Source: a phage
Direction: 5' to 3' (one strand)
DNA: 64,000 nt
Sequence record: PV805630.1
The notes beneath the pieces are model-generated. The model searched no databases, was not told the DNA's origin, and saw only the letters and a list, made by a program, of their open reading frames with translations. Positions within the stretch are counted from its first letter, which is position 1. Every line of letters starts with the position of its first letter. Shown one piece after another: positions 32,894-46,848 of this stretch. The translations under genes and the position numbers were made by a program.

Positions 32894-33343
32894 ATGCAAA
32901 TCGTTCTGAACCAGTCTGAAGTAGAAGCTGCTATTGAAGCTTATGTAAATGAACAGGTTAATCTTGCCGGGGACATTAATATCCTGGTGAATGCAGATGG
33001 TACTGCCACCATTGGCATCAATGAAGAGGCCGGTCATAGTGATGACACTCCCCCCGTGGTAGAGAAGAGGACTCGTCGTTCTCGTAAGAATCCACAAGAA
33101 GCCAAACACCGTCCGGTAGAACCAGAACCAGTTGTTGGGGATGAAACTGAAGAAGAGGTAAAGGAAGAAGAAACCCAGACCTCTACTGGTGGTGTGAACG
33201 AGAGTTCTACGCCGGAACCTGAAGAAGCAGTAGCTGAACCAGAAGCACAAGAAGAAGTTGTGCAGGAGGAAGTTAAGGCAGAAGAACCAGCAGAGAAACC
33301 TGCTGCGAAGCCTTCACTGTTCGCTGGCCTAAAACGTAGTTAA
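32894..33343 (+). CDS. Acidic hypothetical protein (149 aa)
   Basis: Glu-rich C-terminal half. Confidence 0.5.
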   Translation: MQIVLNQSEVEAAIEAYVNEQVNLAGDINILVNADGTATIGINEEAGHSDDTPPVVEKRTRRSRKNPQEAKHRPVEPEPVVGDETEEEVKEEETQTSTGGVNESSTPEPEEAVAEPEAQEEVVQEEVKAEEPAEKPAAKPSLFAGLKRS

Positions 33344-33574
33344 TCTGGTAGGTGGCTCAGAAGCTGCTGCTAGGTGTGGTAGTGTTTATAGTCCTGATGT
33401 TACTACTGGTCAGGATTATAGACGTGTCGGCTCCATACATAGCTTTTATCATCACTGTCATTATCCTGTGGAAATGCAGTGGTAAACACGGTGGTGACAA
33501 GCCGCCAGAATAACAACAACCGAACCAGTGGATTGGAATACTCTCCCCAGTCCATTGGTTCAACCGAGGTTGAT

Positions 33575-33745
33575 ATGAACAAATTTACTATTCACTGGCT
33601 CAATGGAAAGGTTAGTTCTTTCATGGGTGGGGAACCTGCTGAAGGAAACAAAGCATTCCACATTGATTCAGAAGGCTGCAAAATCTTAATACCTTATGCT
33701 TGGTATAAAGGTGGTGAAGTTGAAGCATTGAAAAAGAGTAGTTAA
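33575..33745 (+). CDS. Small hypothetical protein (56 aa; ORF track extends to GTG 33479)
   Basis: GAGG RBS 5 nt before ATG 33575. Confidence 0.4.
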   Translation: MNKFTIHWLNGKVSSFMGGEPAEGNKAFHIDSEGCKILIPYAWYKGGEVEALKKSS

Positions 33746-34186
33746 TATCGTGAAGGGTTCTGTTAGAATCCTTTGAGATAGGAACTCCTATCATAACCTT
33801 TCTTAACTTAATCTTTGCCGTATGGCACTGACGCTAGGGGTGGCCCCCCATCCGTCAGACAGACTATTTTAAGAACCGGTTATCTCAGAAAATGTAAAGC
33901 AACATTCGGGTTAATCAATGGCCTCTCCTATAGGGGCCATTTCTGAATCTTAGGCTATATCCCAAAGGTTAGTATCTTTGGGATAAGGCTTCAGATCCCT
34001 TATCAAACTAACTGCTCAATGTTGAGTATATTAATTAACCCAGCCCACTAAGGGGGCAGGAGTTTAATGCCGGTAAGCATAAGCCCATCCGCCTACAACA
34101 TCGAACTGTTAGATCTTACATGCAACATAGGGTAATGGGAGGATTCGTCCCCTCCCTCCTATTATGAACCAATTCGTGAGAACTCT

Positions 34187-34405
34187 TATCTTGGCTACCG
34201 GGAAAGGAGTGAAAAATGTTCGTAAACTACTCCCCAATTAGGTTCAACTCCTAAGCCAGGGTAAGTGTTCTCACTAATTGGAAAAATTAAGACGGGTCTG
34301 GTGAAGTAGATGGGGTTCGATTCCCTCCGGTGGAGTAATCCACTAGCGTGCTTGGTGTACGAATAAGACTTAGTACTGGTGGTTCGATTCCATCCCCCGT
34401 TACCC
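34187..34405 (+). other. Cluster of three tRNA T-arm-like hairpins at about 70-nt spacing (not foldable into canonical tRNAs by hand)
   Basis: GGTTCAACTCC at 34241, GGTTCGATTCC at 34314 and 34381, each inside a 4-5 bp stem; 7-bp acceptor-like pairings 34189-34195/34255-34261 and 34309-34315/34395-34401; no D-arm or anticodon arm found by hand. Confidence 0.3.
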
Positions 34406-34828
34406 GAAGTCGCCAGGTACTTATGGCAAACAACGAGGTAGTAACGAACTAGTCATTCGTCAAACGCCCACCCAATTATGAGTCAGCAAGAACGCCTTCA
34501 CTTAAACTTAAACAAAAAAGCTTAACGCAATAATTATGTAGGGGTATGTAAGGATTGCGAAGAAGGAGCCAGTTAGAGCCTGGCATGACTCACCCATTTA
34601 GCAGTAACATAGTCCTGATTGCATAGCACTCTAAAGACAACACTGGTAAGACAGTCCAGTGGCTGCTAATGTACTGTTATTCCCCTCGACGGGAATTTCG
34701 CTAGTGAAGGTAACACTTAAAAATCCAAACCTACGTCTTACTGCTATCGGGCTATCAACCCACGGTCGCTTAACCCACTAGTGGTAGTAGTTTGACGGCC
34801 TACCTCGTTGACTGCGTTAAAGTCACTA

Positions 34829-34868
34829 AGTCCCTCGGAGCCGTCACTCTGGGGGACTTTTTTATTTG
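34829..34868 (+). terminator. Intrinsic terminator closing the ORF-free structured region
   Basis: AGTCCCTC...GGGGGACT 8-bp stem followed by TTTTTTATTT. Confidence 0.55.
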
Positions 34869-34892
34869 AGAACTACTTATTGGACGATTCAT

Positions 34893-35045
34893 ATGATTGA
34901 CCTAATCTTAACCCCGTATGCCTATGAGGTAACGGATAACCGAGGACGTAAGTCTCTGGTATTTGCAGGTAGCGTAGCCTATAACAACGCAGTCATGTTT
35001 AAATACAAACTTAAACCACTCTATGAGGCTAACAATGGAATTTGA
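34893..35045 (+). CDS. Small hypothetical protein (50 aa), below ORF-track cutoff
   Basis: Hand translation MIDLILTPYAYEVTDNRGRKSLVFAGS...; weak RBS. Confidence 0.25.
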   Translation: MIDLILTPYAYEVTDNRGRKSLVFAGSVAYNNAVMFKYKLKPLYEANNGI

Positions 35046-35172
35046 TGATTTAGATTTTGAAGCTATTGAAAAGGCGAACCGGGAGAAACTGGAACAAGCT
35101 AATCGTGAAGCTGAAGAGTTAGAAAACGCTAAAGGTAACAATGATTGCACGAGTGGTGGTTGCACCATTTAA
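35035..35172 (+). CDS. Small acidic coiled-coil protein (45 aa), below ORF-track cutoff
   Basis: GAGG RBS; MEFDDLDFEAIEKANREKLEQANREAEELENAKG...; the Ser-rich minus-strand ORF 34908-35168 looks like its antisense shadow. Confidence 0.35.
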   Translation: MEFDDLDFEAIEKANREKLEQANREAEELENAKGNNDCTSGGCTI

Positions 35173-35296
35173 CAAACAAGTGTAAGGTGGTTTTTACCGA
35201 AAGGTACTAAACTACCCGACATGTAGTAAGGCTCATGAAGCCAAAACAAAACAAGCCCTCTTAGTGAGGGCTTTTCCATATCTGTAGGAAACTATT

Positions 35297-35527
35297 ATGA
35301 CGCAAGTATCTATTACCTCTGTTGTTCGTGAAGCCATTCTCAATAATACCGTCCGTACATATTCATTCGATGAAATCGCAGAGAAGCTAGGAGTAACCCG
35401 TTACGTGGCTAAGAAACTCTACTTCACTTTCCTGTGGTTCCCTACGGAAGAAACATTACGGAAGATTAAAGAGACTGGTAAATTTCCAAGTGAAGGACGT
35501 AAGCCTAAAATGTGGAAAACACCCTAA
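35297..35527 (+). CDS. Small putative HTH protein (76 aa)
   Basis: ATG start; YSFDEIAEKLGVTRYVAKK helix-turn-helix-like. Confidence 0.5.
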   Translation: MTQVSITSVVREAILNNTVRTYSFDEIAEKLGVTRYVAKKLYFTFLWFPTEETLRKIKETGKFPSEGRKPKMWKTP

Positions 35528-35537
35528 CTTCTAAAAG

Positions 35538-35568
35538 CAAAGCCCCTCTTTTGAGGGGCTTTCTCATT
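35538..35568. terminator. Bidirectional intrinsic terminator between convergent genes
   Basis: AAAGCCCCTC-TTTT-GAGGGGCTTT with T-rich flanks on both strands, between plus ORF 35297-35527 and the minus-strand virion RNAP gene. Confidence 0.6.
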
Positions 35569-38500
35569 TTAGTTTACTAAGTTCATCCAAGGGTTCAGGT
35601 TGTGAGCACGAAGCCCCTGACCAAAGCCCCATGAGTAATCCAGACTGCCCTTAGCAGCAATACTAAAGATGTTGTCCTGAATAGGCAGGCCAACATTACC
35701 AAACATGGTAGGAGTTGGAGCCAGCATAGCCATTGCTGCATGTACCGGGTTATTACGAATCATGGACACTGCAACTTTTGCAGAACGAATCTTAAAGTTG
35801 TAGAACCACATTAAACCAACACTCTCCATATACCCACGGAAACGGCCCGGCAGACGGTCATAGTTAATGAACTCTTCGGTTACACGTCCCAGTGCTTCTT
35901 CACGAGTCTTACCTTTACGCTGGGTCAATTCATCATAGATGATTGCTTTAGCGATAAAGTCAGAGTACTCAACCGTCTTCTGGATACCCTGGAACAGAGC
36001 AGTATCCTTAGTGATAAGTGCATAACGACCAGCAGCACGTACAGACTTAGGTAACTTATCCGCCAGCTTTTCCATGTATTCGTGAAGTTTACCTTCAGTA
36101 ATCAGGATGTCATCACGACCAATACCAGCATCTGCAATTGAAGAGAACTCACCAGCTTCTATCAGAGGCCAGATACTCATACGCTTATGGCTATCAGTAA
36201 TGGACTGAATCTCAGCCTTAAGTTTACGAATCTGGTTCGGGTTAGTAGCTGCACGTAATTCTGCTTCTGCATCTACCTGACGTAAACGAGATTTAAGGTA
36301 TTGGTTAATCTCAGCAGTCTTCCGTGGAATGCTCTTAGCAATGTTCTTAACCGGTACACCACGAGCAACCATCTGGTAAAGGTTAGCCAAAAAGTTAACA
36401 ACAGGTACGACTACTGACTTAACTACAATCAGAGTCTTAGCATCTTTAACTAAATTTTGAACCAGGTTCTCACCACCCATTAAGTACTTATAGGCACGGT
36501 TACCGGCTAAACCCAGAATAGCTTTTTTAAAAGTATTAAGCGTTTCCGGGGACCAACGAGAATTACCAGACCAAGCATCACCAATCGAAGCTGCACGATA
36601 GCCAAGTGCATCATTCAGCATGTCACGACGTACCCACAGTTCACCCTCACCAAACAGTTTTTCTGCTTTCCGTCGAGTTTCGCTGTTCATCAGCTTAAGT
36701 GCATCAGCAGTTACTGGGTCCAGTTTAGAACCAAAAAGGTTCACGTACTGGGACTTATTAGCAGCAGACATCTTAAGGTCTTCCTTGTACATGCTATACA
36801 GGTTCTCAATCAGCATATCGTTGAAACGCTGAGCCTTAGCTTCTTCCACCTGACGTCCACGCCATACACCAATTGCACGGGCAAGATGATTTTCACCTTC
36901 AATATGCTTCAGCATATTAGGGTTAATTGATTGCTCATAAGCAACCACATCACCTTTAGCATTATATATGGGCAATAGTGGTTCATTACCACGCTCACCA
37001 CGAGCTAGTGCTTTAGTGATACGGTCTACAGAAGGCTTGTCAGTAATACGACCGGCTACCATGGAACCCATCGTAAAGCCTGTGCCGAGGTCTACACCAC
37101 CAGCAGTATTACGAACGCTCTGTAGGATACCTTGTGAGAATGGAGCCTGTGCCTGTACCGGTGCAAAGTAGTAGCTACTCGATGGACCTCGGTTAGCAGA
37201 GCTACCTTGATAAGTACCCAGACGAACATAGGACTTCTCTATCAAATCGCCAAACTCGCTATCTTCAGCAACAACCAGACTAACACCCTGTTTAGTCTCA
37301 CTAGGGATATACCCTTTGTACTGGTTCAGGGTTGCACGCATATTAGATTTGGCTTTAGCCATTTCATCTTTACGCTGCCCAACCAGGTAAGAAGTAGCAA
37401 AGTCCATTCCCTCAACTTCTGTCTGAGCCAGTGAAGATAACATCTCACGGTCGGACTTGTTCATTGCTTCCAGTGCATACAGGGTAATAAGTTTATCCAG
37501 TTGAGCTACATCTACAATAGGGCGAGTAGTCTTACGTTCACCCAGCATACGAGAGATTGCAGTAGCATTACGCAGCAAGTTTTTACCGACTGTGCCATTA
37601 ATCATGTACTGAGCCAGTTGCTTAGATTTACGGTTAATCAGAGGCCAGTTACGACCAGCTTGTTTCTGCAAATCTGCTTCCAGCTTATTCACTTCACGGT
37701 CAACAATCTTCTGGTCTGACAGCAGGTCACGAATTTCAGCCAGAGACATGGTGTCACGCAGGACAGCTAAGTCAGTTTTACCCATACCAGTGTGCATTGC
37801 TTTCCACTCATCCTTAGTCAGCTTACGGCTGAACTTAGATGCGATAGTGGTAGGCAGGTGTTCACGGAACTGCTGACGGTCAGCCTGCACCTGTGCACGG
37901 ACTGCTTTAATCAAATCGTATACAGAAGCATTACTCTTAGTACGACCGGTTAAGTCATTAACCAGGTCATGGAAAGGTTGCCATACTTTACCCTGGTTCA
38001 TTGCAACCATAACGCCTTCAGCTACGTTTGCACCATTCTTCTCTGTAGCAATAGCAGCCATTAGTTGTGCAGCATGAGCAGCACCTTTGACCAATGGGTT
38101 TTTGGTATTAGCTGCAACTTCACGAGCACTTTCTAAAACACGAGTAGACAGTACATCAATAGAGTCCACCAAATACTGGTTAGCACGGTCAATAGCATTA
38201 CCACTAGGAGTAGCAACGGAATCATAGAATGACTGTGCATTTAGGCTAGTCTGCATGATTGTTTGAGCCAGTGCATCCATACCTTCCTGTACGTTAGTAG
38301 CTTTAGTATCACCTGCTACACGAGCATTCAGGCTTGCCATTGCAGCAGTACCAATGTTAGTCAGCATTGCATCAACGGTATTCCCAGATTTCTTATCTGC
38401 TTTCATAACAGGAATGTTAGCCAGTACGTTACGTACCTCTTCACTTACCATTGCCAGACCAACAAAGGTAGGCAGTATTGAAGAACGGCCCTGTGCATCA

Positions 38501-41500
38501 AACTCAATATTGTTAGCACCCATGATGGTATCGAACTTCTGCTGTGCATAGTAACGGTCAGCAGGGTTAGTACTATCTGGGTCAGTCATGAATGATTCAA
38601 CAGTCAGGTTCTTAGTAACGTGTGCATAGTATTCCTGTGCACGAGAAAGAGCAGCAGGGCTAATAGCAGCTTCAGTAGCCAGTGCAGCAACAATGTTAGT
38701 AAAGAGTCGCTGTTCCTGCATATTCATAGTGAAGCCATGAGCCTGAACATCACGGGTTACTTTAGTTGCGTGCTTTTTCGCATCAGAGAACTTACCTTCA
38801 CGGATTACTTGCTGTACTGGTTCTGAACCAATGTAGTTAGTAATCAGCTTATCAAAGGTCTGTCCTAACTCTTCCAGACGGGTATTGTCACCATATGCTT
38901 TGTTATGGAACAAGGTAGTATCTTTGGCTACAGCAGCCGTAGGAGCCTGTCCACGCATAACAACTGAAGAGTTAAACAGTAAGCCAGAGAACATATCATC
39001 TGCATTAGCAGGTGCTTTCTTGCGACCGAATACTAGACGCTTGATTGCTTCATATACAGACTGAACCATGGCTTTCAGTGCAGTGGTCTTCTTCTGCTTA
39101 CCAATCAGTTCACGGTTGGTTAAGCCCCAAGCCATGTACTCATTCAGTGCAGCAGCTTTAGCCATTGCAGGTTCAATGAAGCCGTTAGACAAATGACCAT
39201 TAATGGTATTAAGTGCATCAGCATATGCTTCACGTACTGCCGGGGATTCATCCTTAACATCCAGAGTAAGGAACTGGTTCATCAAGTCTTCAATATTCTG
39301 GACTGCTTCATTAGGAGTACCCTCATAGTGAGCCAGTACAGATTCAAAGGTAGAAGCATGTACTAATTCATGAACCAGAGTCTCTAAGGAAGGGGTAACT
39401 AAGTAGATGGTTTTATCATCAAAGTTAGTCCAACCGTATGCATTACCAGCTTCGGCAGCTTCAATATCTTCTGGTGCTGGGCGAGTAATGTTCTTCTCAA
39501 TAGCATAAGCATCCAATTGAGCAGGAGTACCGTAAACAACCTTGTAGTCTTTAGCAGCAAGGGATTTCTGTATTTCTTTCAATACTGCTTGCTGTTCTGG
39601 AGACATCTCTTTAGCCAGTTTAGTAATGGCAGTATTAGACAATAGACGTACACCAGACTTAAGTACACGGCCAACCTGCTCCATCGCTGGCACTTCTTTA
39701 ACAGGTGCTTCTTTAGTAGGCACTTCTTTCACTGGTTCTGCTTTAGAAGCACGCACTGCATCACGACGCCTGTTTAATTCAGCATCAAACAGTTCGTTCA
39801 ACTTAGCTACTTGCTGGTCTACAGTCAGACCTTCCAGAGAAATTTTACCGTTGTTCACATATGGAGCACCTACAGCAGCCATCTGGTCAACAGTGGTCTG
39901 TACCTGGTTCATTACTTTGTGGCGAATATCTACACCCAGGGCAATGTTACGCAAGTTACGCTCAATGAGGTTAACACCGGAATTCTTAATCATATCAATC
40001 TTATACTGCCTGTCTCCCTCAACACGACTGATATGAGAAAGCTGTTCAAAATCTAAAGCGGAACGAGCAATGTCATCGATTGTCTTATCCGATAACTTAT
40101 CAAAGTCTACGTTCTTCATGAACTTAGAGAAGGAGTCATACACGTTCTTAATAGGGTTGCCCTGCCAAGAAGTATATACAGCCTCATTAGCTTTACGGCT
40201 TGCATCAGTAATGTCACTGATACCAATGTTCATACCATCAAAGATTTTCAAAGTATTCTTCGGTGCACCTTTCATAGTAGAAAGGGTCTGCATCATCATG
40301 CCATCACCAGTACCGATGGTCATAAACGGAATACCTGCAACACCTGCTTGTGAAGGAGCATAGATGCTCATTGGCACACGCATACGGTCATCTAAGTTGG
40401 TAGCCAGTACTTGGTTAGCAACATCAGTATTCTCACTACCAGCAATGTAGAAAGTCTGTAAACCAGTCTCAATCATTGGAGCCAGTGGAGACAAGGATTT
40501 CTGAATTTCATTCAGTTCTTTCTGTGTTAAGAAATCACCCTTCTTCCAGGTTGGGTCTTTTTCTTTTTCAGCCAGTTTAGCCTGTACTGCTTGCTGGAAC
40601 ATATCTTGCAATACCAGAGACTGAATCTGAGTAGCCTTCTGCAAGTTCTCAGTGGATTGCATCAGCCCCTCCCCAACGGTGAACCGGATACTTTGTCTCA
40701 TTGGTTCAACGAAGAAGTGCAACATGTTCTCTTGTAAGTTCTTAAGGGCAGCACCAGATACGGTAAACTCCTGGGGATTTAACTCACCAGTCAGAGCACC
40801 ATCTACTTCTTTAATAAATAACTTACCTTTACGCTTAGCTGGAATCTTACCAGTCAGTGCTTCCATAGAAGTAAGGAAGGTATCCAGCATAGCCTGAGCA
40901 TCTGCCTCAGACGCAGCCTCCTTACCAAACATTGCCATAGCTGGGGAAATGCTAGGGTCAGCAGCACGTGCTTGTAGAACGTCACTGAGGCGTTCGTAGA
41001 TGGTGTCAGTAATTGCACTAACCATCTTCCCAGCAATACCACGTGCACCAGAACCATAGATGGTAATAGTCAGTGGGTTTTTAGCGATACCACGTTTCAG
41101 GTCCAGAGTGCCATCTTCATTCAGGTTAAAGTCTTTAATGAACAGGTCCATCAACTTCTGGAGATGGTTCATCTGGCTCATAACCGGAACATTGTTACGG
41201 TAAGTAGTACGTAACTCATTTAGATAAAATTGCAGACCATTAGTAGATGCTTCATACAGGTCAACATTATCGTCAATAGAACAATGTTCATTCATCGTTT
41301 TACCAGCACGACCAAAGAACAAACCACCCTTGGCAGTATTCTTAATCCAATTTGGAGTGAACTTACCTCCAGTCATTAATACCATTGCATTGATTGGGCC
41401 GTTGGTTACACCATCAGCTTCGACATACAGTGGGGTATTAAAGTTAGCACGGTCATCACTGTTCAGGTAACGGGCATATTCCATCAGAGCCATGAGAGCC

Positions 41501-44500
41501 ACGAAGGATTTGTTATCACCCAGGGAAGACTTCAGAATATCTACTGCATCAGTAGGTAAGTAACCAGACTTATCAAACTCGACCATCATATCAACAGCAG
41601 GTTTCAGATTACCTTCTAGAGCTTTGGTCAGATTTTCAGACATAGCTTCACGGGACATTTTGTGTACCTTGATGCCTAATGCCTGGGCCAGTCCTAGCTG
41701 GAAGTCAGAGAACGCTTGGCTGTTTTCATTACTCAAGTCAATAGTGGAGAAGGTTGGCAGAATTGCTTCACGAACCAGCTTACTGGATTGTGGATTGTTC
41801 TTACCAAGCATCTGCATACGACCTACACGGGTCATGTTGTAACCGTAATGGATAGGTGTATCCAGACCATTCTCTTGTTCTTTTAGCTGATTAATTAAAC
41901 CGAACAAGGAATCATATGCCATAGATACCGATAAGTTCTTACCTTCCAGAGATTTGGCAGTGTTTTCATTCAGCAAATCAGGATTAAGAGAACCAGCACC
42001 CATCAGTTCCAGAATGCCGTCACGCCCCAATGCTTCATAGAAGTTAACCATCGGCATGTGTACACGGAACTCCGTAGCCTGTTCAGCTTTCAGAGCAGCT
42101 TTCTGTTCTGGGGTATTCCTAACCGCAGGGTTACGTAACTGAGTTTGAGCCACGGAAGGAATGTCGTCACCGAAGTACGTTTTCTCTTCCGGGTTTACCA
42201 AAACAGCTTCTTCAATTGCTGTAAGGAAATTATTAATAGGGTCTTTATCAGCCAACTTATTAATAGTGTACAAACCAATAGTCTTATTAGAGTCCGGGTC
42301 AATCTCAGACACATCCAACATAGACTCAGTAACTGCACCCATCTCGATGAGGGAAGACAGAATCTCTGTAGCCATTGCCACTGGAATACCCTTGGTATAA
42401 CCCAGTGGTGCATTAGGGTTACGGTTTAAACCCCAGTAGGATTCAATCTTTTGAGCCAGTGAGTTAGTAGCCTCAATCAGAGTCTGGGCATTATCAAACT
42501 CAGCCAGAATACTTTCTGGTAACAGAGATGCATCTACACCAGTAATAGCAGCCACGTCTTTCATGTCTTTAATGGCAGCATTCTGTGTAGCAGTCAGTCG
42601 CCATTGCAGACCAGCAAGTACAGCAGTCTCTAACAACTGGTCATTGAACTTAAAGGTATCTCCATCTTTCTCTACGATGTTAAGTAACTTACCACCTACC
42701 CAACGGTTAGCCTCAGTACCTTCTGCAAAACGTTTACCAACATTTTTATTAGCAAGGAACTTAGCCAGTCGTTCAGACAGAGTAGCCTTCAGAGTTTCCC
42801 CAAAGTCCATCAAGTCTTGATAGCGTTCTAACACATCACCTGCGAGAACGTTATTTTCTTTTTGAGTGAACGCTTCAAAGCGAGCAGCAGAAGACAGTGC
42901 TTGCTTGATATCAGCCAAAGGAGATTCAGAACCAATGGTACGGGACTTAGGTTCTTCCGGTAGGGTAAATGCCTTCAGGAACTGGTTCGGTGTCTTCTCA
43001 TTGTTATAGACAGGGAACACTGCTTCCATTCCAGAAAGGGGTTTGCCACCCACTGTATAATCTGCTTTCAGCTGAGCCAGTGATACTTCATCCTTCTCCA
43101 CGTTGTTAGTGTTACGACCAGAGGTATCTACACCAACCAGAATCTGTGCATTATTGGCTTCAACGAAAGACTGAACAGTATTGAATTGTTCAGCAGTCAG
43201 CTTCTGATTATCAAACAGTTGCAGAGATACAAATGGTTGTTCACTACCTTTATAGAAGGTAGAGCGAATAGCACCTGTATCCAGGGACATATCACGATAC
43301 CCATCATGCCCAAATACGTCGGACAGGCTGATATGGTCGCCATTAGAACCAACCACAGTACCATCAGCAAACAGCCATGGACTCTCCCTACGATCACCAT
43401 ACTTATTAAGAGTTTCCTGTGAAATAGTATTTTCTTTCACATAGGCATCTCTTTCAGATTCAGTAGGTTGCTCGATGGTATCCTCATTAGTGGGGGTAGC
43501 ATCATCTACAACCGGGCTAGTCTTTTCAGACTTAGGTACTTTCTCTTCCTGTACAGGTGTAACTTCTGGCTGGGAGAATGTATTACGTACATAGTTCATA
43601 AAATCATTACGTGCTTGAGAAGGAGAAGACCATACTTCCCGTGTGCTACGTAAACTAAAGATTCGTCCTTCAGGAGTCATTACGTAAGGTACATTTGTTT
43701 TACCGTACTTAAATGAAGTGAGTACATCTGACTTACCAGTAACAGTGCTTTCCCCTGGAATGACAATAGTCTTACCACCAGTAGAAGGAACAGCACGAAC
43801 ACCCTCAATATCCTTACCAAGAGAAATATACTCTTTACCGTTGTAATCAAAGTACTGACCTATCTGCATATAGGTAGCTTGTTGCTTACCAGTAAACTCA
43901 GCAGTTTTCATCTCCGGGCCGTTAGGTACAGACGTACTTTCAGACTTAGGCTTAGATACTTTCTCTGGTTCTGACTTAGACTCTACAGTGTTAGGAGCAG
44001 TTTTATTGTTTACCACTGGTTTAGCTTTAGACTGTACAGTAGTAGTGTCCTCTTGCACTGGTGCAGGGGTTTCATCAACCTGATTCACTGGTTCATTAGT
44101 CTGTTGGGACTGAGTGGCATTAAGACCACCTTGACGGAACTCTTTAACTACCTGGGCAGCTGGCTTGTTCAGACGTGAATCCAACGAGGTAACTTTCACA
44201 TGAGAAACATTAAGCTCCGGGTAAGCCGTAGCAAGTGCGTTAGCAATATCAGCTACGGTCTTAGCTTCCAGCGCTACTTGCTGGGCAAACTTAACAGACT
44301 TGGTATCATAAGGATTAACACCGAGGCCAGTACGACTACGTACCCATTCACGAGTAGGCGTGAGAGCCTGATAATGAACAGACTTATTCTTATCCGCATT
44401 CCCCGAAATCAGATGCTCATTCAACGCTCCGACCTTATTCTGCATGTGCTGGGCGAACTTCATAAAATCGCTCAGATAAGCGGAGGCCAAATCGAAGTTA

Positions 44501-46848
44501 CCAGAGTTATACGCAGAACGAATGCGTTTCGCATGTTGCAACGCAGAGTACTGTCCTTCATTAGAACGAGACTCGTCGGTTTTAATCTGTTTACTAACGA
44601 TGTCTTGACGACGTAAGCCCAGTTCTTCTGCTTTAGCATCATACTCACGTGCACCCTGTAACAGAGCAGCAGCTGATTGCAGGGCAGCACGTTGACGATT
44701 ATTCAGTGTAATCTTACCCTCACTCGCATGCTTCAGAACCATGTTCACTGAATCTGCATCCAGTACTTCTGGAGACACATCAGCAGCCATAGCAATGTTG
44801 TTTGCTTGGGCTTGGTTAGCTTCTTCAGTAGCTTTCAGCTTACCTGCTTCAGCCTGTTCCTGAATCATAGAATGGATGGCACGGAATGCACGAAGTACTT
44901 TAGGGGTATTCTGTATGTTAGCCATCAGACCGGAGAACTGGTCTACGATTGCAGCAGCAGGAGAACCCTGTTCCAGATTAGCCAGAGCACCTGGGTCACG
45001 GTTAATGAAGCTATCCATAGACATGATGTTGTCATACATCTGGATTGCAGCTTCCATTTGAACGTCAGGGTCTTCAGCAGTATTAACCAGGTCAGCCATC
45101 TTCTGAATAGCTTCTACACGGTTAGTGGAACCAGAAACAGCTTCACGGATTACTGGGTTGGCTTGTTCCAATTCTACCGGGTCAAACTTCATTGCCTGGG
45201 TTAAGTCAGCAGCATACTGAGTAGCAGCAGCCTTCTCTTCTGGAGTGATGTCCATTGCATCTACTGCTTCCTGTACGGTTGCCTGTGCTTGCTCTGCCTG
45301 AGCAACAGCTTCCTGTGCAGCAGCATTAACCGTAGCATCAGCTACAGGGGATGCTTGTTCATTACGCTTAGCAACTTCTTCACCACGTTGAACCAGGATG
45401 TTAGTAAGAGGGGAGGCAGCTTTTGCTAATGTTTTACCAACCAGAGAAGCACCAGCCAGGGTAGTACGAAGAGCAGGTCCAGCAGCAGCACCGGCAGCTT
45501 TAACAGTTGCACCAGGAGCCTGAGCAACACCAGCACTACCGAAGCCATAAAGTGCACCAAGACCTGCTTGCTCACCGACACCTTTGAGGGTATCTCGGGA
45601 TGCATCAACATTTTCCTTGATTGCACGGTTCTGGGCATACTGACCAAAGCCTGACTGAATACCTTCTTCAACTGTTTCACGTAGCATATTGGAACCAGCA
45701 CCAGCCAGTGAACCTACCTTAAGTGGGTTAAGTTCAAAGCGAGATACCAGTGGACCGGTAGCAGCAGCAACTGGAGCAGTTAAGCCAGCAGCAAGGATAC
45801 CTGTTTCAGATGCAGTCTGACGACGTGCTTCATCAGGAGATAAACCATCGGCAATATGTTGTTGGTAAACAGGAGACTTACTTGCCAGTTCTGGATGGGA
45901 CATCTTCATGATTTCAGAAGCAGTCTGTTGGTATGCACCACCAGCTTCCATAGCACCGATTGCAATAGCAGGTGCAGCAACACGACCAGTAGACAGTGCA
46001 ACCTGTGCAGGACGTGAACCTAACCCAGCAGCTAAGGTAATACCCTTAACAGCTTTATCACCACCTACCATTACTTTACCGAGTGCAGATACACCACGGA
46101 TAAGTGGACCACCGGTAAAGAGGGAACCAACGCCTTCACTCAGTCCATCTGAGGCAGCCATACCATTATCAAGTGTGTTAGTAACAGAGTCGAAAGCATC
46201 ACGACCAATGCGAGACAGGGAGGCAACCAAATCGCTCTCCCCGTTTTTGATGTCCTGTTCATAGAGTTTCTGGTTCTTTTGAGCAGAAATCTGGTTCTGA
46301 TTCTGAACAACTTTACGTGTAGCATTCAGTGCATCAGATTGTAGATTGTGTACGCCTTCATTCAACCAATCCATCCCGGAAGCAATGGTTGCCCCGGCAT
46401 TATCATTGACCAGACCTGCGCCAAGAGCAGCAATGCCCCCAAGGGTATTAGCAACACCAAGACCAACACCAGAAAGAGTATCGCCAAATGCTTCTGCGTT
46501 AGTACGCTGTTTAGATAAGTCCTGACGTACAGCATCCGCAGCATTAGCTCGACTATTAAGAATTTGTAGACCTTGCTCATTACCGTATTTATTAATGATT
46601 TCTAATGGGGAGGCTTGAGTGAAGTCTGCCTGAAGTGAACCTGGTTCGAATGCACCGATTCCAAGATTACCTACTCGTCCAGTCTGGAGAGTGTAAGCAT
46701 TCTCTGGGGTTAATTGGAAAGGGCTTTGCCCTTGTGCAGCTTGCTTCTGAGAGGTTGCAGTAGAGACATCGACTTGCTTAGCATTAGTGATGCTGTCTGC
46801 GAAACCTGCCAGACGGTCAAATGTTGACATAGCATGTTTCCTGTTCAA
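35569..46848 (-). CDS. Virion-encapsidated giant RNA polymerase (N4 vRNAP / gp50-like, 3759 aa)
   Basis: Single 11.3-kb ORF, hallmark of N4-like phages; internal T7-RNAP-like motif B RGIAKNPLTITIYGSG. Confidence 0.9.
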   Translation of the reverse strand: MNRKHAMSTFDRLAGFADSITNAKQVDVSTATSQKQAAQGQSPFQLTPENAYTLQTGRVGNLGIGAFEPGSLQADFTQASPLEIINKYGNEQGLQILNSRANAADAVRQDLSKQRTNAEAFGDTLSGVGLGVANTLGGIAALGAGLVNDNAGATIASGMDWLNEGVHNLQSDALNATRKVVQNQNQISAQKNQKLYEQDIKNGESDLVASLSRIGRDAFDSVTNTLDNGMAASDGLSEGVGSLFTGGPLIRGVSALGKVMVGGDKAVKGITLAAGLGSRPAQVALSTGRVAAPAIAIGAMEAGGAYQQTASEIMKMSHPELASKSPVYQQHIADGLSPDEARRQTASETGILAAGLTAPVAAATGPLVSRFELNPLKVGSLAGAGSNMLRETVEEGIQSGFGQYAQNRAIKENVDASRDTLKGVGEQAGLGALYGFGSAGVAQAPGATVKAAGAAAGPALRTTLAGASLVGKTLAKAASPLTNILVQRGEEVAKRNEQASPVADATVNAAAQEAVAQAEQAQATVQEAVDAMDITPEEKAAATQYAADLTQAMKFDPVELEQANPVIREAVSGSTNRVEAIQKMADLVNTAEDPDVQMEAAIQMYDNIMSMDSFINRDPGALANLEQGSPAAAIVDQFSGLMANIQNTPKVLRAFRAIHSMIQEQAEAGKLKATEEANQAQANNIAMAADVSPEVLDADSVNMVLKHASEGKITLNNRQRAALQSAAALLQGAREYDAKAEELGLRRQDIVSKQIKTDESRSNEGQYSALQHAKRIRSAYNSGNFDLASAYLSDFMKFAQHMQNKVGALNEHLISGNADKNKSVHYQALTPTREWVRSRTGLGVNPYDTKSVKFAQQVALEAKTVADIANALATAYPELNVSHVKVTSLDSRLNKPAAQVVKEFRQGGLNATQSQQTNEPVNQVDETPAPVQEDTTTVQSKAKPVVNNKTAPNTVESKSEPEKVSKPKSESTSVPNGPEMKTAEFTGKQQATYMQIGQYFDYNGKEYISLGKDIEGVRAVPSTGGKTIVIPGESTVTGKSDVLTSFKYGKTNVPYVMTPEGRIFSLRSTREVWSSPSQARNDFMNYVRNTFSQPEVTPVQEEKVPKSEKTSPVVDDATPTNEDTIEQPTESERDAYVKENTISQETLNKYGDRRESPWLFADGTVVGSNGDHISLSDVFGHDGYRDMSLDTGAIRSTFYKGSEQPFVSLQLFDNQKLTAEQFNTVQSFVEANNAQILVGVDTSGRNTNNVEKDEVSLAQLKADYTVGGKPLSGMEAVFPVYNNEKTPNQFLKAFTLPEEPKSRTIGSESPLADIKQALSSAARFEAFTQKENNVLAGDVLERYQDLMDFGETLKATLSERLAKFLANKNVGKRFAEGTEANRWVGGKLLNIVEKDGDTFKFNDQLLETAVLAGLQWRLTATQNAAIKDMKDVAAITGVDASLLPESILAEFDNAQTLIEATNSLAQKIESYWGLNRNPNAPLGYTKGIPVAMATEILSSLIEMGAVTESMLDVSEIDPDSNKTIGLYTINKLADKDPINNFLTAIEEAVLVNPEEKTYFGDDIPSVAQTQLRNPAVRNTPEQKAALKAEQATEFRVHMPMVNFYEALGRDGILELMGAGSLNPDLLNENTAKSLEGKNLSVSMAYDSLFGLINQLKEQENGLDTPIHYGYNMTRVGRMQMLGKNNPQSSKLVREAILPTFSTIDLSNENSQAFSDFQLGLAQALGIKVHKMSREAMSENLTKALEGNLKPAVDMMVEFDKSGYLPTDAVDILKSSLGDNKSFVALMALMEYARYLNSDDRANFNTPLYVEADGVTNGPINAMVLMTGGKFTPNWIKNTAKGGLFFGRAGKTMNEHCSIDDNVDLYEASTNGLQFYLNELRTTYRNNVPVMSQMNHLQKLMDLFIKDFNLNEDGTLDLKRGIAKNPLTITIYGSGARGIAGKMVSAITDTIYERLSDVLQARAADPSISPAMAMFGKEAASEADAQAMLDTFLTSMEALTGKIPAKRKGKLFIKEVDGALTGELNPQEFTVSGAALKNLQENMLHFFVEPMRQSIRFTVGEGLMQSTENLQKATQIQSLVLQDMFQQAVQAKLAEKEKDPTWKKGDFLTQKELNEIQKSLSPLAPMIETGLQTFYIAGSENTDVANQVLATNLDDRMRVPMSIYAPSQAGVAGIPFMTIGTGDGMMMQTLSTMKGAPKNTLKIFDGMNIGISDITDASRKANEAVYTSWQGNPIKNVYDSFSKFMKNVDFDKLSDKTIDDIARSALDFEQLSHISRVEGDRQYKIDMIKNSGVNLIERNLRNIALGVDIRHKVMNQVQTTVDQMAAVGAPYVNNGKISLEGLTVDQQVAKLNELFDAELNRRRDAVRASKAEPVKEVPTKEAPVKEVPAMEQVGRVLKSGVRLLSNTAITKLAKEMSPEQQAVLKEIQKSLAAKDYKVVYGTPAQLDAYAIEKNITRPAPEDIEAAEAGNAYGWTNFDDKTIYLVTPSLETLVHELVHASTFESVLAHYEGTPNEAVQNIEDLMNQFLTLDVKDESPAVREAYADALNTINGHLSNGFIEPAMAKAAALNEYMAWGLTNRELIGKQKKTTALKAMVQSVYEAIKRLVFGRKKAPANADDMFSGLLFNSSVVMRGQAPTAAVAKDTTLFHNKAYGDNTRLEELGQTFDKLITNYIGSEPVQQVIREGKFSDAKKHATKVTRDVQAHGFTMNMQEQRLFTNIVAALATEAAISPAALSRAQEYYAHVTKNLTVESFMTDPDSTNPADRYYAQQKFDTIMGANNIEFDAQGRSSILPTFVGLAMVSEEVRNVLANIPVMKADKKSGNTVDAMLTNIGTAAMASLNARVAGDTKATNVQEGMDALAQTIMQTSLNAQSFYDSVATPSGNAIDRANQYLVDSIDVLSTRVLESAREVAANTKNPLVKGAAHAAQLMAAIATEKNGANVAEGVMVAMNQGKVWQPFHDLVNDLTGRTKSNASVYDLIKAVRAQVQADRQQFREHLPTTIASKFSRKLTKDEWKAMHTGMGKTDLAVLRDTMSLAEIRDLLSDQKIVDREVNKLEADLQKQAGRNWPLINRKSKQLAQYMINGTVGKNLLRNATAISRMLGERKTTRPIVDVAQLDKLITLYALEAMNKSDREMLSSLAQTEVEGMDFATSYLVGQRKDEMAKAKSNMRATLNQYKGYIPSETKQGVSLVVAEDSEFGDLIEKSYVRLGTYQGSSANRGPSSSYYFAPVQAQAPFSQGILQSVRNTAGGVDLGTGFTMGSMVAGRITDKPSVDRITKALARGERGNEPLLPIYNAKGDVVAYEQSINPNMLKHIEGENHLARAIGVWRGRQVEEAKAQRFNDMLIENLYSMYKEDLKMSAANKSQYVNLFGSKLDPVTADALKLMNSETRRKAEKLFGEGELWVRRDMLNDALGYRAASIGDAWSGNSRWSPETLNTFKKAILGLAGNRAYKYLMGGENLVQNLVKDAKTLIVVKSVVVPVVNFLANLYQMVARGVPVKNIAKSIPRKTAEINQYLKSRLRQVDAEAELRAATNPNQIRKLKAEIQSITDSHKRMSIWPLIEAGEFSSIADAGIGRDDILITEGKLHEYMEKLADKLPKSVRAAGRYALITKDTALFQGIQKTVEYSDFIAKAIIYDELTQRKGKTREEALGRVTEEFINYDRLPGRFRGYMESVGLMWFYNFKIRSAKVAVSMIRNNPVHAAMAMLAPTPTMFGNVGLPIQDNIFSIAAKGSLDYSWGFGQGLRAHNLNPWMNLVN

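Follow-up and report, generated by a model that had tools for sequence, protein, structure and literature searches.

The 64,000-nt stretch of phage DNA analyzed here (sequence record PV805630.1; hereafter the window) comes from a Gamaleyavirus, an N4-like phage of the Schitoviridae that is 95.6% identical to vB_EcoP_G7C (G7C) over the studied region. Its block at 33746-34868, free of long open reading frames (ORFs), contains two small elements, E2 (34169-34281) and E3 (34291-34401), which are read as RNA on the plus strand and whose helices are maintained by selection. According to the modeled folds, E2 is a T-arm stacked on a 27-bp helix, and E3 is an acceptor/T-arm minihelix around a permuted unit resembling a transfer RNA (tRNA) and made up of a T-arm, a closed stem and a D-like arm. 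As judged from sequence comparison, the position of the block is that of the tRNA locus of the N4 group, and the window carries no tRNA gene there. On balance, we favor the view that the tRNA/stable-RNA locus of this G7C-like phage of the N4 family is devoid of decoding tRNAs and instead specifies a rightward array of small structured non-coding RNAs, including the mimics E2 and E3, which we propose act in trans. We regard E2 and E3 as small phage RNAs that mimic tRNA and form new families, with a function that is inferred.

An earlier note on this DNA had pointed to three motifs resembling the tRNA T-loop, about 70 nt apart and each within a short stem, and this description proved accurate: the spacing is 73 and 67 nt, and every motif lies in a 4-5-bp stem with a 7-nt loop. 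The pattern GGTTCRANTCC has three matches in the whole 64-kb window, all within the block and all on the plus strand. The chance expectation from shuffles is 0.15, and no shuffle gave three. The note had left open a tRNA array, degenerate tRNA remnants or another structured non-coding RNA. Our results support the last of these, with the motifs divided over two distinct RNAs, one in E2 and two in E3.

Folds, covariation and distribution of E2 and E3

The predicted parts of E2 are as follows.

34169-34281, plus strand: E2, candidate tRNA-mimic RNA with a 27-bp closing helix, a hairpin and a T-arm (evidence: fold z-score, covariation, covariance model)
34169-34195 with 34255-34281, plus strand: closing helix of 27 bp, followed by UA and an unpaired stretch
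34206-34233, plus strand: hairpin with an invariant A-rich loop, followed by CCAA
34238-34254, plus strand: T-arm UUAGG-UUCAACU-CCUAA, holding the first motif; its 3' strand abuts the closing helix
34241-34251, plus strand: T-loop motif 1, GGTTCAACTCC

The E2 fold has a z-score of -6.2. In alignment A3 (nine sequences), 94.6% of the cells are paired. Both partners have changed in 16 pairs, of which 15 belong to the long helix; controls with slid partners reach 39-50% pairing and at most four pairs of this kind. With the covariance model of E2, the plus strand obtains 125.8 bits and the minus strand 32.5 bits.

For E3, the predicted parts are these.

34291-34401, plus strand: E3, candidate tRNA-mimic RNA with two T-arms (evidence: covariation, covariance model)
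34291-34296 with 34396-34401, plus strand: acceptor-like stem of 6-7 bp, joining both ends
34312-34326, plus strand: T-arm-like hairpin T1, GGGG-UUCGAUU-CCCU, holding the second motif
34330-34343, plus strand: hairpin H2, variable in sequence
34347-34361, plus strand: D-like hairpin H3 with loop UUGGU, followed by the linker GACUUAGUA
34378-34394, plus strand: canonical T-arm T2, holding the third motif and followed by a 1-nt spacer
34314-34324 and 34381-34391, plus strand: T-loop motifs 2 and 3, GGTTCGATTCC

In alignment A2 (12 sequences), 98.0% of the cells of the E3 fold are paired and 15 of the 29 pairs have changed on both sides, against at most three such pairs and 39-59% pairing in the slid-partner controls. 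Covariation is strong in the acceptor stem, which reads GACGGG/CCCGUU, GGUGGG/CCCACU, ACGGCG/CGCUGU or GGCAAG/CUUGCC depending on the lineage, and T1, H2 and H3 are all backed by compensatory changes. An invariant unpaired C separates T2 from the 3' strand of the acceptor-like stem. The E3 covariance model gives 118 bits on the window and 107-121 bits on members of the family; on ordinary tRNAs and some tRNA-like stretches in relatives it gives about 14-25 bits, a likeness that runs via acceptor and T-arm only.

G.U pairs account for about 9% of the paired cells in the E2 and E3 alignments. Read on the opposite strand, 29 (E3) and 30 (E2) G.U cells turn into A.C, and pairing falls from 98.0% to 89.8% for E3 and from 94.6% to 86.4% for E2. 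This asymmetry, together with the E2 model scores on the two strands, is the reason for assigning both RNAs to the plus strand.

Homologues were sought with the non-coding part of the block against 50,697 phage records, and sub-pieces of it match unrelated phages. E2 occurs in 31 records, with one common fold in all and the site annotated in none: N4 and close relatives, the Ithacaviruses SP-076 and SP-058, the Klebsiella phages Pylas and KpCHEMY26, and the T4-like Yersinia phages TG1 and phiR1-RT. E3 occurs in about 45 records, namely in most Gamaleyaviruses, in Kaypoctaviruses and in T4-like phages (Dhakavirus VR5 and VR25, Edwardsiella PEi20 and PEi26, Citrobacter CkP1, Klebsiella KLB31), and none of these sites is annotated save for one small PHANOTATE 'hypothetical protein' ORF in Mimir124. 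The homologues retain 75-90% identity in four phage subfamilies. From one phage family to the next, the loop of the E2 hairpin (16-18 nt) and the E3 linkers do not vary, which is more conservation than structure alone calls for. Indels between homologues measure 1, 2 or 4 nt, and substitutions fall in base-paired couples, not at third codon positions.

Both families are confined to phages and lie beside or between tRNA genes. Exact patterns for E2 and E3 had no match in representative genomes of 185,579 bacterial and archaeal species, a search that divergent copies could escape, and of the listed matches to a looser E2 pattern in metagenomes, the one true match duplicates a known contig. In N4, E2 is found between a tRNA-like unit and tRNA-Pro, ending 8 nt before the latter; no T-run follows it either there or in the window. 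In VR5, 18 nt separate E3 from the tRNA-Met before it and 9 nt from the tRNA-Arg behind it, which is itself followed by a homologue of rnaD; in PEi20-like phages the acceptor stem of E3 begins 2 nt past the CCA of the preceding tRNA. The T2 arm of E3 agrees in 18 of 19 positions with that of the tRNA-Met of VR5, suggesting tRNA descent.

The tRNA locus and related RNAs

ARAGORN, which the earlier note had advised, was run on the whole window and returned neither a tRNA nor a transfer-messenger RNA (tmRNA), and the Rfam 15 covariance models, also advised, gave no family match in the window at the gathering threshold. At E ≤ 10, searches of 1.8 kb and of 251 nt produced only chance-level matches and bare T-loop fragments. 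The tmRNA models match only T-loops of 11-13 nt or one stretch of 33 nt, at 6-11 bits versus gathering scores of 47-84, and the tRNA, YrlA, GOLLD and ROOL models have no match even at E ≤ 10. A tRNA array that merely needed a proper search is thereby refuted, with nothing from ARAGORN and bare T-loop fragments as all that the tRNA and tmRNA models yield.

E2 lacks a D-stem, and the loop of its only hairpin measures 16-18 nt. In E3, 16 unpaired nt lie between the D-like hairpin and T2, and a T-arm-like hairpin occupies the place of the D-arm. Neither has room for an anticodon arm of 5 bp with a 7-nt loop. Because space for an anticodon arm and a D-arm beside the acceptor stem are both lacking, the modeled folds indicate that E2 and E3 cannot be decoding tRNAs. 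Reading E3 as an intron-containing tRNA, or as one whose variable arm is long, was likewise rejected, the 16 unpaired nt comparing with about 22 needed for an anticodon arm and a variable loop. A literature search on tRNA-like elements of N4-like phages, phage tRNA mimics or decoys and the tRNA of G7C found no description of these elements; the EC1-UPM paper states merely the absence of tRNA.

In relatives, the locus does hold tRNA genes. N4 and Jura have tRNA-Asn, tRNA-Ser, tRNA-Thr and tRNA-Pro in a 1.5-kb gap without ORFs, Kaypoctaviruses have five tRNAs followed by about 1.3 kb without ORFs, and other Gamaleyaviruses have tRNA-Ile(AAT), tRNA-Ala(CGC), tRNA-Cys(ACA) and an odd tRNA whose anticodon loop measures 6 nt. 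Pairwise mapping resolves the region into a mosaic of conserved blocks (33300-34166, 34276-34404, 34404-34598, and 34600 onward), and the tRNAs of relatives stand exactly at the junctions, after ~34165 and at 34598/34599, where the window and G7C have none. The tRNA-Ile(AAT) lies directly 3' of the segment 34404-34598 (block C). True tRNAs of the relatives do not align with E2 or E3.

The junction 34598/34599, which is the tRNA-Ile(AAT) site of relatives and in some of them also that of the odd tRNA with the 6-nt anticodon loop, is an insertion hot spot; G7C carries a 135-bp insert here (L001 2470-2605) with a predicted long hairpin, which the window lacks. The segment that replaces 34167-34275 of the window in relatives carries tRNA-Ala(CGC) and tRNA-Cys(ACA) as well as further T-arm units of 166-169 nt (L002 2490-2658, L005 2187-2352, L006 2289-2457, L007 2289-2457, L027 5564-5732, L035 2639-2804), which match the E3 model weakly at ~15-23 bits. 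This variable segment probably contains more tRNA-like families. In the public records Mimir124, Bas96 and K60PH164C1, the locus is filled with PHANOTATE ORFs of 30-70 amino acids (aa), one record also showing a 'RIIA/RIIB lysis inhibitor' pseudo-CDS; across an RNA locus, such ORFs and the pseudo-CDS are probably annotation artefacts.

The closest known kind of RNA is represented by rnaC and rnaD of phage T4, and there is some resemblance to YrlA. T4 makes rnaC and rnaD as two small stable RNAs from its tRNA region, and their role is unknown (PMC3014915). They correspond to species 1 (rnaC, 139 nt) and species 2 (rnaD, 119 nt). Like these, the homologues of E2 and E3 are non-tRNA RNAs inside a phage tRNA cluster, on the strand of the tRNAs and separated from them by spacers of a few nt; the locus is the same in the window, with the tRNAs absent. 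Moreover, rnaC ends in a T-arm, CCGGG-UUCGAAU-CCCGG, with an acceptor-like pairing, and homologues of the two T4 RNAs co-occur with ours in T4-like phages, as E3 with rnaD in VR5 and E2 with rnaC in TG1. The architectures nevertheless differ, rnaC combining one T-arm with a long internal arm, E2 having its 27-bp closing helix and E3 its two T-arms. Homology to rnaC or rnaD was rejected, as blastn (word size 7) found at best 12-13 nt at E ≥ 0.019, that is, chance-level matches, the predicted folds differ, and the E3 model has no match in the T4 locus. A match of ATCTTTGCCGTA between rnaC/rnaD and another part of the block, M1, is probably due to chance.

YrlA is a bacterial and phage Y RNA with a tRNA-like domain in which a T stem-loop, a stem-loop in acceptor position and a D stem-loop follow each other (Chen et al. 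2014, PMC4201824). The inner part of E3 shows the same permuted order (T1, H2, and H3 with a GG-containing loop) and is likewise closed by a further stem, whereas its outer second T-arm and acceptor-like stem are additions relative to YrlA. None of the E3 sequences in A2 has the Ro60-binding motif GNCGAAN0-1G in its 5' region. No Ro60 gene (rsr, TROVE) is annotated near the locus in annotated relatives, where the neighbors are gp46 (RuvC-like), gp47, gp47.2, gp48, gp49 (DUF2829) and the virion RNA polymerase; the proteins of the window were not scanned against Pfam. E3 thus resembles YrlA and is not a member of it.

With canonical tRNAs, the two RNAs share the T-loop consensus, the position in a tRNA operon and the strand. 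Their T-stem is stacked directly (E2) or nearly so (E3) on a closing helix, which resembles a tRNA in part: the helix that the T-arm of E2 abuts has 27 bp and not 7 bp, and in E3 an unpaired C stands between the canonical T2 and the acceptor-like stem. Neither has an anticodon arm or a D-arm beside the acceptor stem.

Proposed role and competing explanations

By analogy, the placement of E2 and E3 among tRNA genes suggests a tRNA-like maturation. Host tRNA-maturation enzymes would excise them from the operon transcript, as for T4 rnaC and rnaD; 5' ends like those of tRNAs would be cut by RNase P, and the long helix by RNase III or RNase E. Once freed, the RNAs would work in trans, presenting proteins that recognize tRNAs with tRNA-like 'elbows'. 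As decoys or sponges, they might draw off nucleases that target tRNAs, or enzymes of tRNA modification and processing; they would take no part in translation.

A more far-reaching version, which we put forward only tentatively, is that E2 and E3 are founding members of phage-specific families of tRNA mimics that act in trans on the tRNA world of the host and are exchanged horizontally between N4-like and T4-like coliphages (in the case of the neighboring element E1, with phiEco32-like ones). E3 would then be a 'double-elbow' RNA, a permuted YrlA-like tRNA domain nested in a tRNA-like acceptor/T minihelix. The RNAs could be decoys that soak up tRNA-cleaving defense nucleases, or could capture enzymes of tRNA processing, tRNA modification or RNA decay. 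If true, this would provide a first functional handle on the 50-year-old puzzle of rnaC and rnaD.

The role of the non-tRNA RNAs in phage tRNA clusters has been a question since T4 species 1 and 2 and is topical now, as many bacterial defenses cleave tRNAs. Phage tRNA islands are usually annotated for tRNAs only, the remainder being left blank or given spurious tiny ORFs, as in several of the public records considered here. The 'blank' DNA of this locus is conserved at least as well as neighboring genes (non-coding 33746-34010, 94-100% identity among 12 relatives; the adjacent gp47 gene, 83-100%). It holds at least two strongly covarying RNA families that are new to Rfam and to every GenBank annotation examined and are common to phage groups otherwise little alike. 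Since all decoding tRNAs have been lost and the mimics kept, the latter are not retained for decoding, and G7C-like phages therefore offer a clean genetic system for the non-tRNA RNAs of tRNA clusters.

Several observations weigh against a trans-acting role or limit its support. Expression, RNA ends, stability and processing of E2 and E3 are all inferred, and the role in trans is a proposal. The minimum-energy fold of E3 is no better than that of shuffled sequences (z = -1.3), so that its support comes from covariation alone. Alignments A2 and A3 comprise 9-12 distinct sequences from three or four lineages, and shuffle statistics overstate significance for such related sequences; for this reason most weight is given here to the slid-partner control and to how many independent pair types there are. 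Each module is also dispensable, because among Gamaleyaviruses E2 is found in a few only (G7C, Moonfish and the window) and E3 is missing in several close relatives. Finally, Ithacavirus and Kaypoctavirus have a long stem of the E2 type 4 nt after the 3' end of a tRNA, with TTTT behind it; at its apex, the Kaypoctavirus stem bears inserts of 30-45 nt without likeness to tRNA. To this stem with its TTTT, a cis-acting terminator or processing hairpin fits equally well as a trans-acting RNA. In view of the Kaypoctavirus inserts, the E2-type stem behaves as a scaffold with swappable tips. The Kaypoctavirus stems (CCTATCAATGAG.../...CTCTTTGATAG), of the Ithacavirus type, are located at L157 710-793, L158 841-917, L159 520-596, L160 3138-3214 and L161 6906-6995.

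The last of these points bears on the main rival, a role in cis, which we consider possible though on the unlikely side. The tRNA-like units would be punctuation only, recruiting RNase P, RNase Z or RNase III or terminating transcription in the manner of mitochondrial tRNA punctuation or the MALAT1 mascRNA, with no role once released. The location of E2 and E3 between other modules and, in relatives, beside true tRNAs would suit such signals, as would the Ithacavirus and Kaypoctavirus stems just described; in addition, the near-perfect 27-bp helix is a plausible RNase III site. However, extra punctuation would be needless in T4-like phages in which genuine tRNAs flank E3 at 18 and 9 nt, the invariant E2 loop and E3 linkers exceed the needs of a cleavage signal, and no T-run follows E2 in the window or in N4.

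Alternatively, the entire 1.1 kb could be one large ornate RNA of the GOLLD/ROOL type, with the modules as its domains and the tRNAs of relatives in linker positions, which we regard as unlikely. GOLLD and ROOL are large ornate phage RNAs encoded near tRNA islands, GOLLD sometimes with tRNAs in its linker (PMC12286853), and the block is similarly phage-encoded, structured and located at a tRNA locus. Consistent with a single RNA, one terminator closes the block, conservation is high along most of it, and the tRNAs of relatives fall exactly at domain junctions. Its units are small, though, and individually dispensable: E1, E2, E3 and a further module, E5, are each found alone in other phage groups, and E2 and E3 are present or absent independently of each other among close relatives. 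Moreover, the GOLLD and ROOL models of Rfam find nothing even at E ≤ 10, a terminator-like hairpin stands inside the block after E1, and no long-range helix between modules is supported by covariation. Inverted repeats that could form such helices (I6, I10) show no covariation, and no covarying inter-module helix was detected in data whose low within-genus variation could hide one.

Still more unlikely is that the motifs are decaying remnants of lost tRNA genes without present function. Descent from tRNAs is probable, and in this historical sense only are the remnants proposed in the earlier note plausible, given the canonical tRNAs that relatives have and the window lacks and the 18/19 match of the T2 arm to the VR5 tRNA-Met. 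Decay, on the other hand, does not fit, because the units are conserved across phage families (75-90% identity in four subfamilies) and their helices persist through many compensatory changes; pairing of 94-98% maintained through 15-16 double substitutions is unlike pseudogenes. Besides, the true tRNAs of relatives are found elsewhere, at the block junctions, and show no alignment with the two elements. That the block acts as DNA (an origin, a recombination or a homing site) or encodes very small proteins is highly improbable: a homing endonuclease gene lies just upstream in G7C, the junctions are indel hot spots, and PHANOTATE fills the counterpart of the block in Mimir124 and Bas96 with ORFs of 30-70 aa, but the asymmetry in G.U pairs and model scores indicates plus-strand RNA, ORFs of at least 60 aa are absent, and neither the indel lengths (1, 2 or 4 nt) nor the paired substitutions, which avoid a third-codon pattern, suit coding sequence.

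Other modules and the surroundings of the block

E2 and E3 are embedded in an array whose limits and further predicted modules are listed here.

33746-34868, plus strand: ORF-free block, from the stop codon of an 88-aa ORF to the intrinsic terminator
33746-33795, plus strand: 5' piece of E1, with hairpins 33749-33773 and 33777-33792, right after the stop codon of the gp47.2-like gene; homologous to the start of the Kuravirus element
33793-33883, plus strand: M1, with closing helix AUAACC/GGUUAU and nested hairpins; fold z-score -3.15
33906-33946 and 33947-33996, plus strand: two hairpin domains (inverted repeats I12/I2, consensus fold), the first holding the 10-bp hairpin 33917-33941, the second the long hairpin
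33976-34166, plus strand: E1 core, 77-79% identical to unannotated DNA of more than 100 phiEco32-like phages
33982-34004, plus strand: E1 core hairpin with conserved loop CUUCAGAUC and two compensatory pairs
34008-34012 with 34108-34112, plus strand: E1 core closing helix CUAAC/GUUAG, enclosing a variable inner domain
34137-34156, plus strand: E1 terminal hairpin GGGAGG/CCUCCC, an annotated terminator in phage 4E8
34404-34598, plus strand: block C, 85-97% identical in all Gamaleyaviruses examined
34412-34427, 34436-34469, and 34479-34485 with 34586-34592, plus strand: parts of block C in the consensus fold, namely a hairpin, a domain, and a multi-branch domain closed by UGAGUCA/UGACUCA
34601-34666, plus strand: E5, with closing helix GCAGU/GCUGC, conserved single strands AACAUAGUCCUGA and CUCUAAAGACAA, and an inner hairpin CACUGG-9 nt-CCAGUG
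34667-34827, plus strand: 3' trailer, less conserved, with hairpin 34680-34695
34828-34868, plus strand: intrinsic terminator closing the RNA block, with a 13-bp stem (34828-34859), a 6-nt loop and the tail TTTTTATTT

On one side, the block is flanked by the gp46, gp47 and gp47.2 genes, on the other by the leftward virion RNA polymerase gene. The 88-aa ORF directly 5' of it (33479-33745) is the homologue of G7C gp47.2. No ORF of at least 60 aa is situated wholly inside 33795-34865, where the absence of such ORFs claimed in the earlier note is therefore borne out, and the block is touched only by the 3' end of the 88-aa ORF and by ORFs of at most 57 aa. The plus-strand terminator that the note placed at the end of the block was identified as well, and the G7C record annotates a rho-independent terminator at the position matching 34828-34868. 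As a description, 'early/late boundary' is loosely right: with the block, the rightward-transcribed genes come to an end, and some 0.7 kb further on is the stop of the virion RNA polymerase ORF, which runs leftward (35569-46848). No promoter is claimed, because a sigma-70-like match at 33742-33769 is at chance level (four found versus 4.1 expected) and is not conserved in Kuravirus.

Among the three perfect hairpins that had been pointed out, GGGAGG/CCTCCC was located exactly (34137-34142 with 34151-34156). The one put at about 33907-33931 exists some 10 nt away, at 33917-33941 (AATGGCCTCT/AGGGGCCATT), and that put at about 33958-33985 is the inner part of a longer hairpin with 21-nt arms (33947-33967/33976-33996). 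With its 3' arm, the long hairpin 33947-33996 reaches into the hairpin 33982-34004 that is conserved with Kuraviruses; these two therefore compete and may be alternative folds.

In more than 100 phiEco32-like Kuraviruses, E1 (33746-33795 plus 33976-34166) corresponds to a single uninterrupted element, unannotated and about 240 nt long, which has the GGGAGG/CCUCCC hairpin at its end as well. In Gamaleyaviruses, E1 is split by an insertion of about 180 nt that contains M1. Its 5' piece shows no variation among ten Gamaleyaviruses. The inner domain (34015-34095; A5 columns 270-350) exists in at least three unrelated, swapped alleles among Gamaleyaviruses; the allele of the window is shared with phiEco32-like phages, and that of G7C differs. 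For M1, the alignment to Kuravirus 4E8 is at 74% and falls in a different intergenic site (L011 3778-3878); M1 yields no covariation because it is nearly invariant within the genus.

The consensus fold of block C has three compensatory pairs, all from St11Ph5. At ~34432-34436 (around AACGA), the window has a 4-nt insertion that is absent from nine aligned relatives. Conservation of E5 extends over N4, Kaypoctavirus and Gamaleyavirus. Of the 20 pairs in its consensus fold, 14 show at least one compensated double change, and its closing helix is wholly swapped in St11Ph5. The 3' trailer occurs as two alleles about 77% alike among relatives, and its hairpin 34680-34695 has been replaced in a compensatory way in N4.

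Upstream of the block, G7C carries the HNH homing endonuclease gene gp47.1 between gp47 and gp47.2 (L001 943-1440), which the window lacks, with a clean junction at ~33540-33582. Downstream, the window and G7C are without the homologues of gp48 and gp49 that PhAPEC7 and N4 have, and what is left in 34870-35568 of the window is a set of short ORFs (49-86 aa) and then, at 35539-35562, a terminator-like hairpin. This hairpin scans as a plus-strand terminator, and G7C and PhAPEC7 annotate terminators on both strands there, beside the virion RNA polymerase gene.

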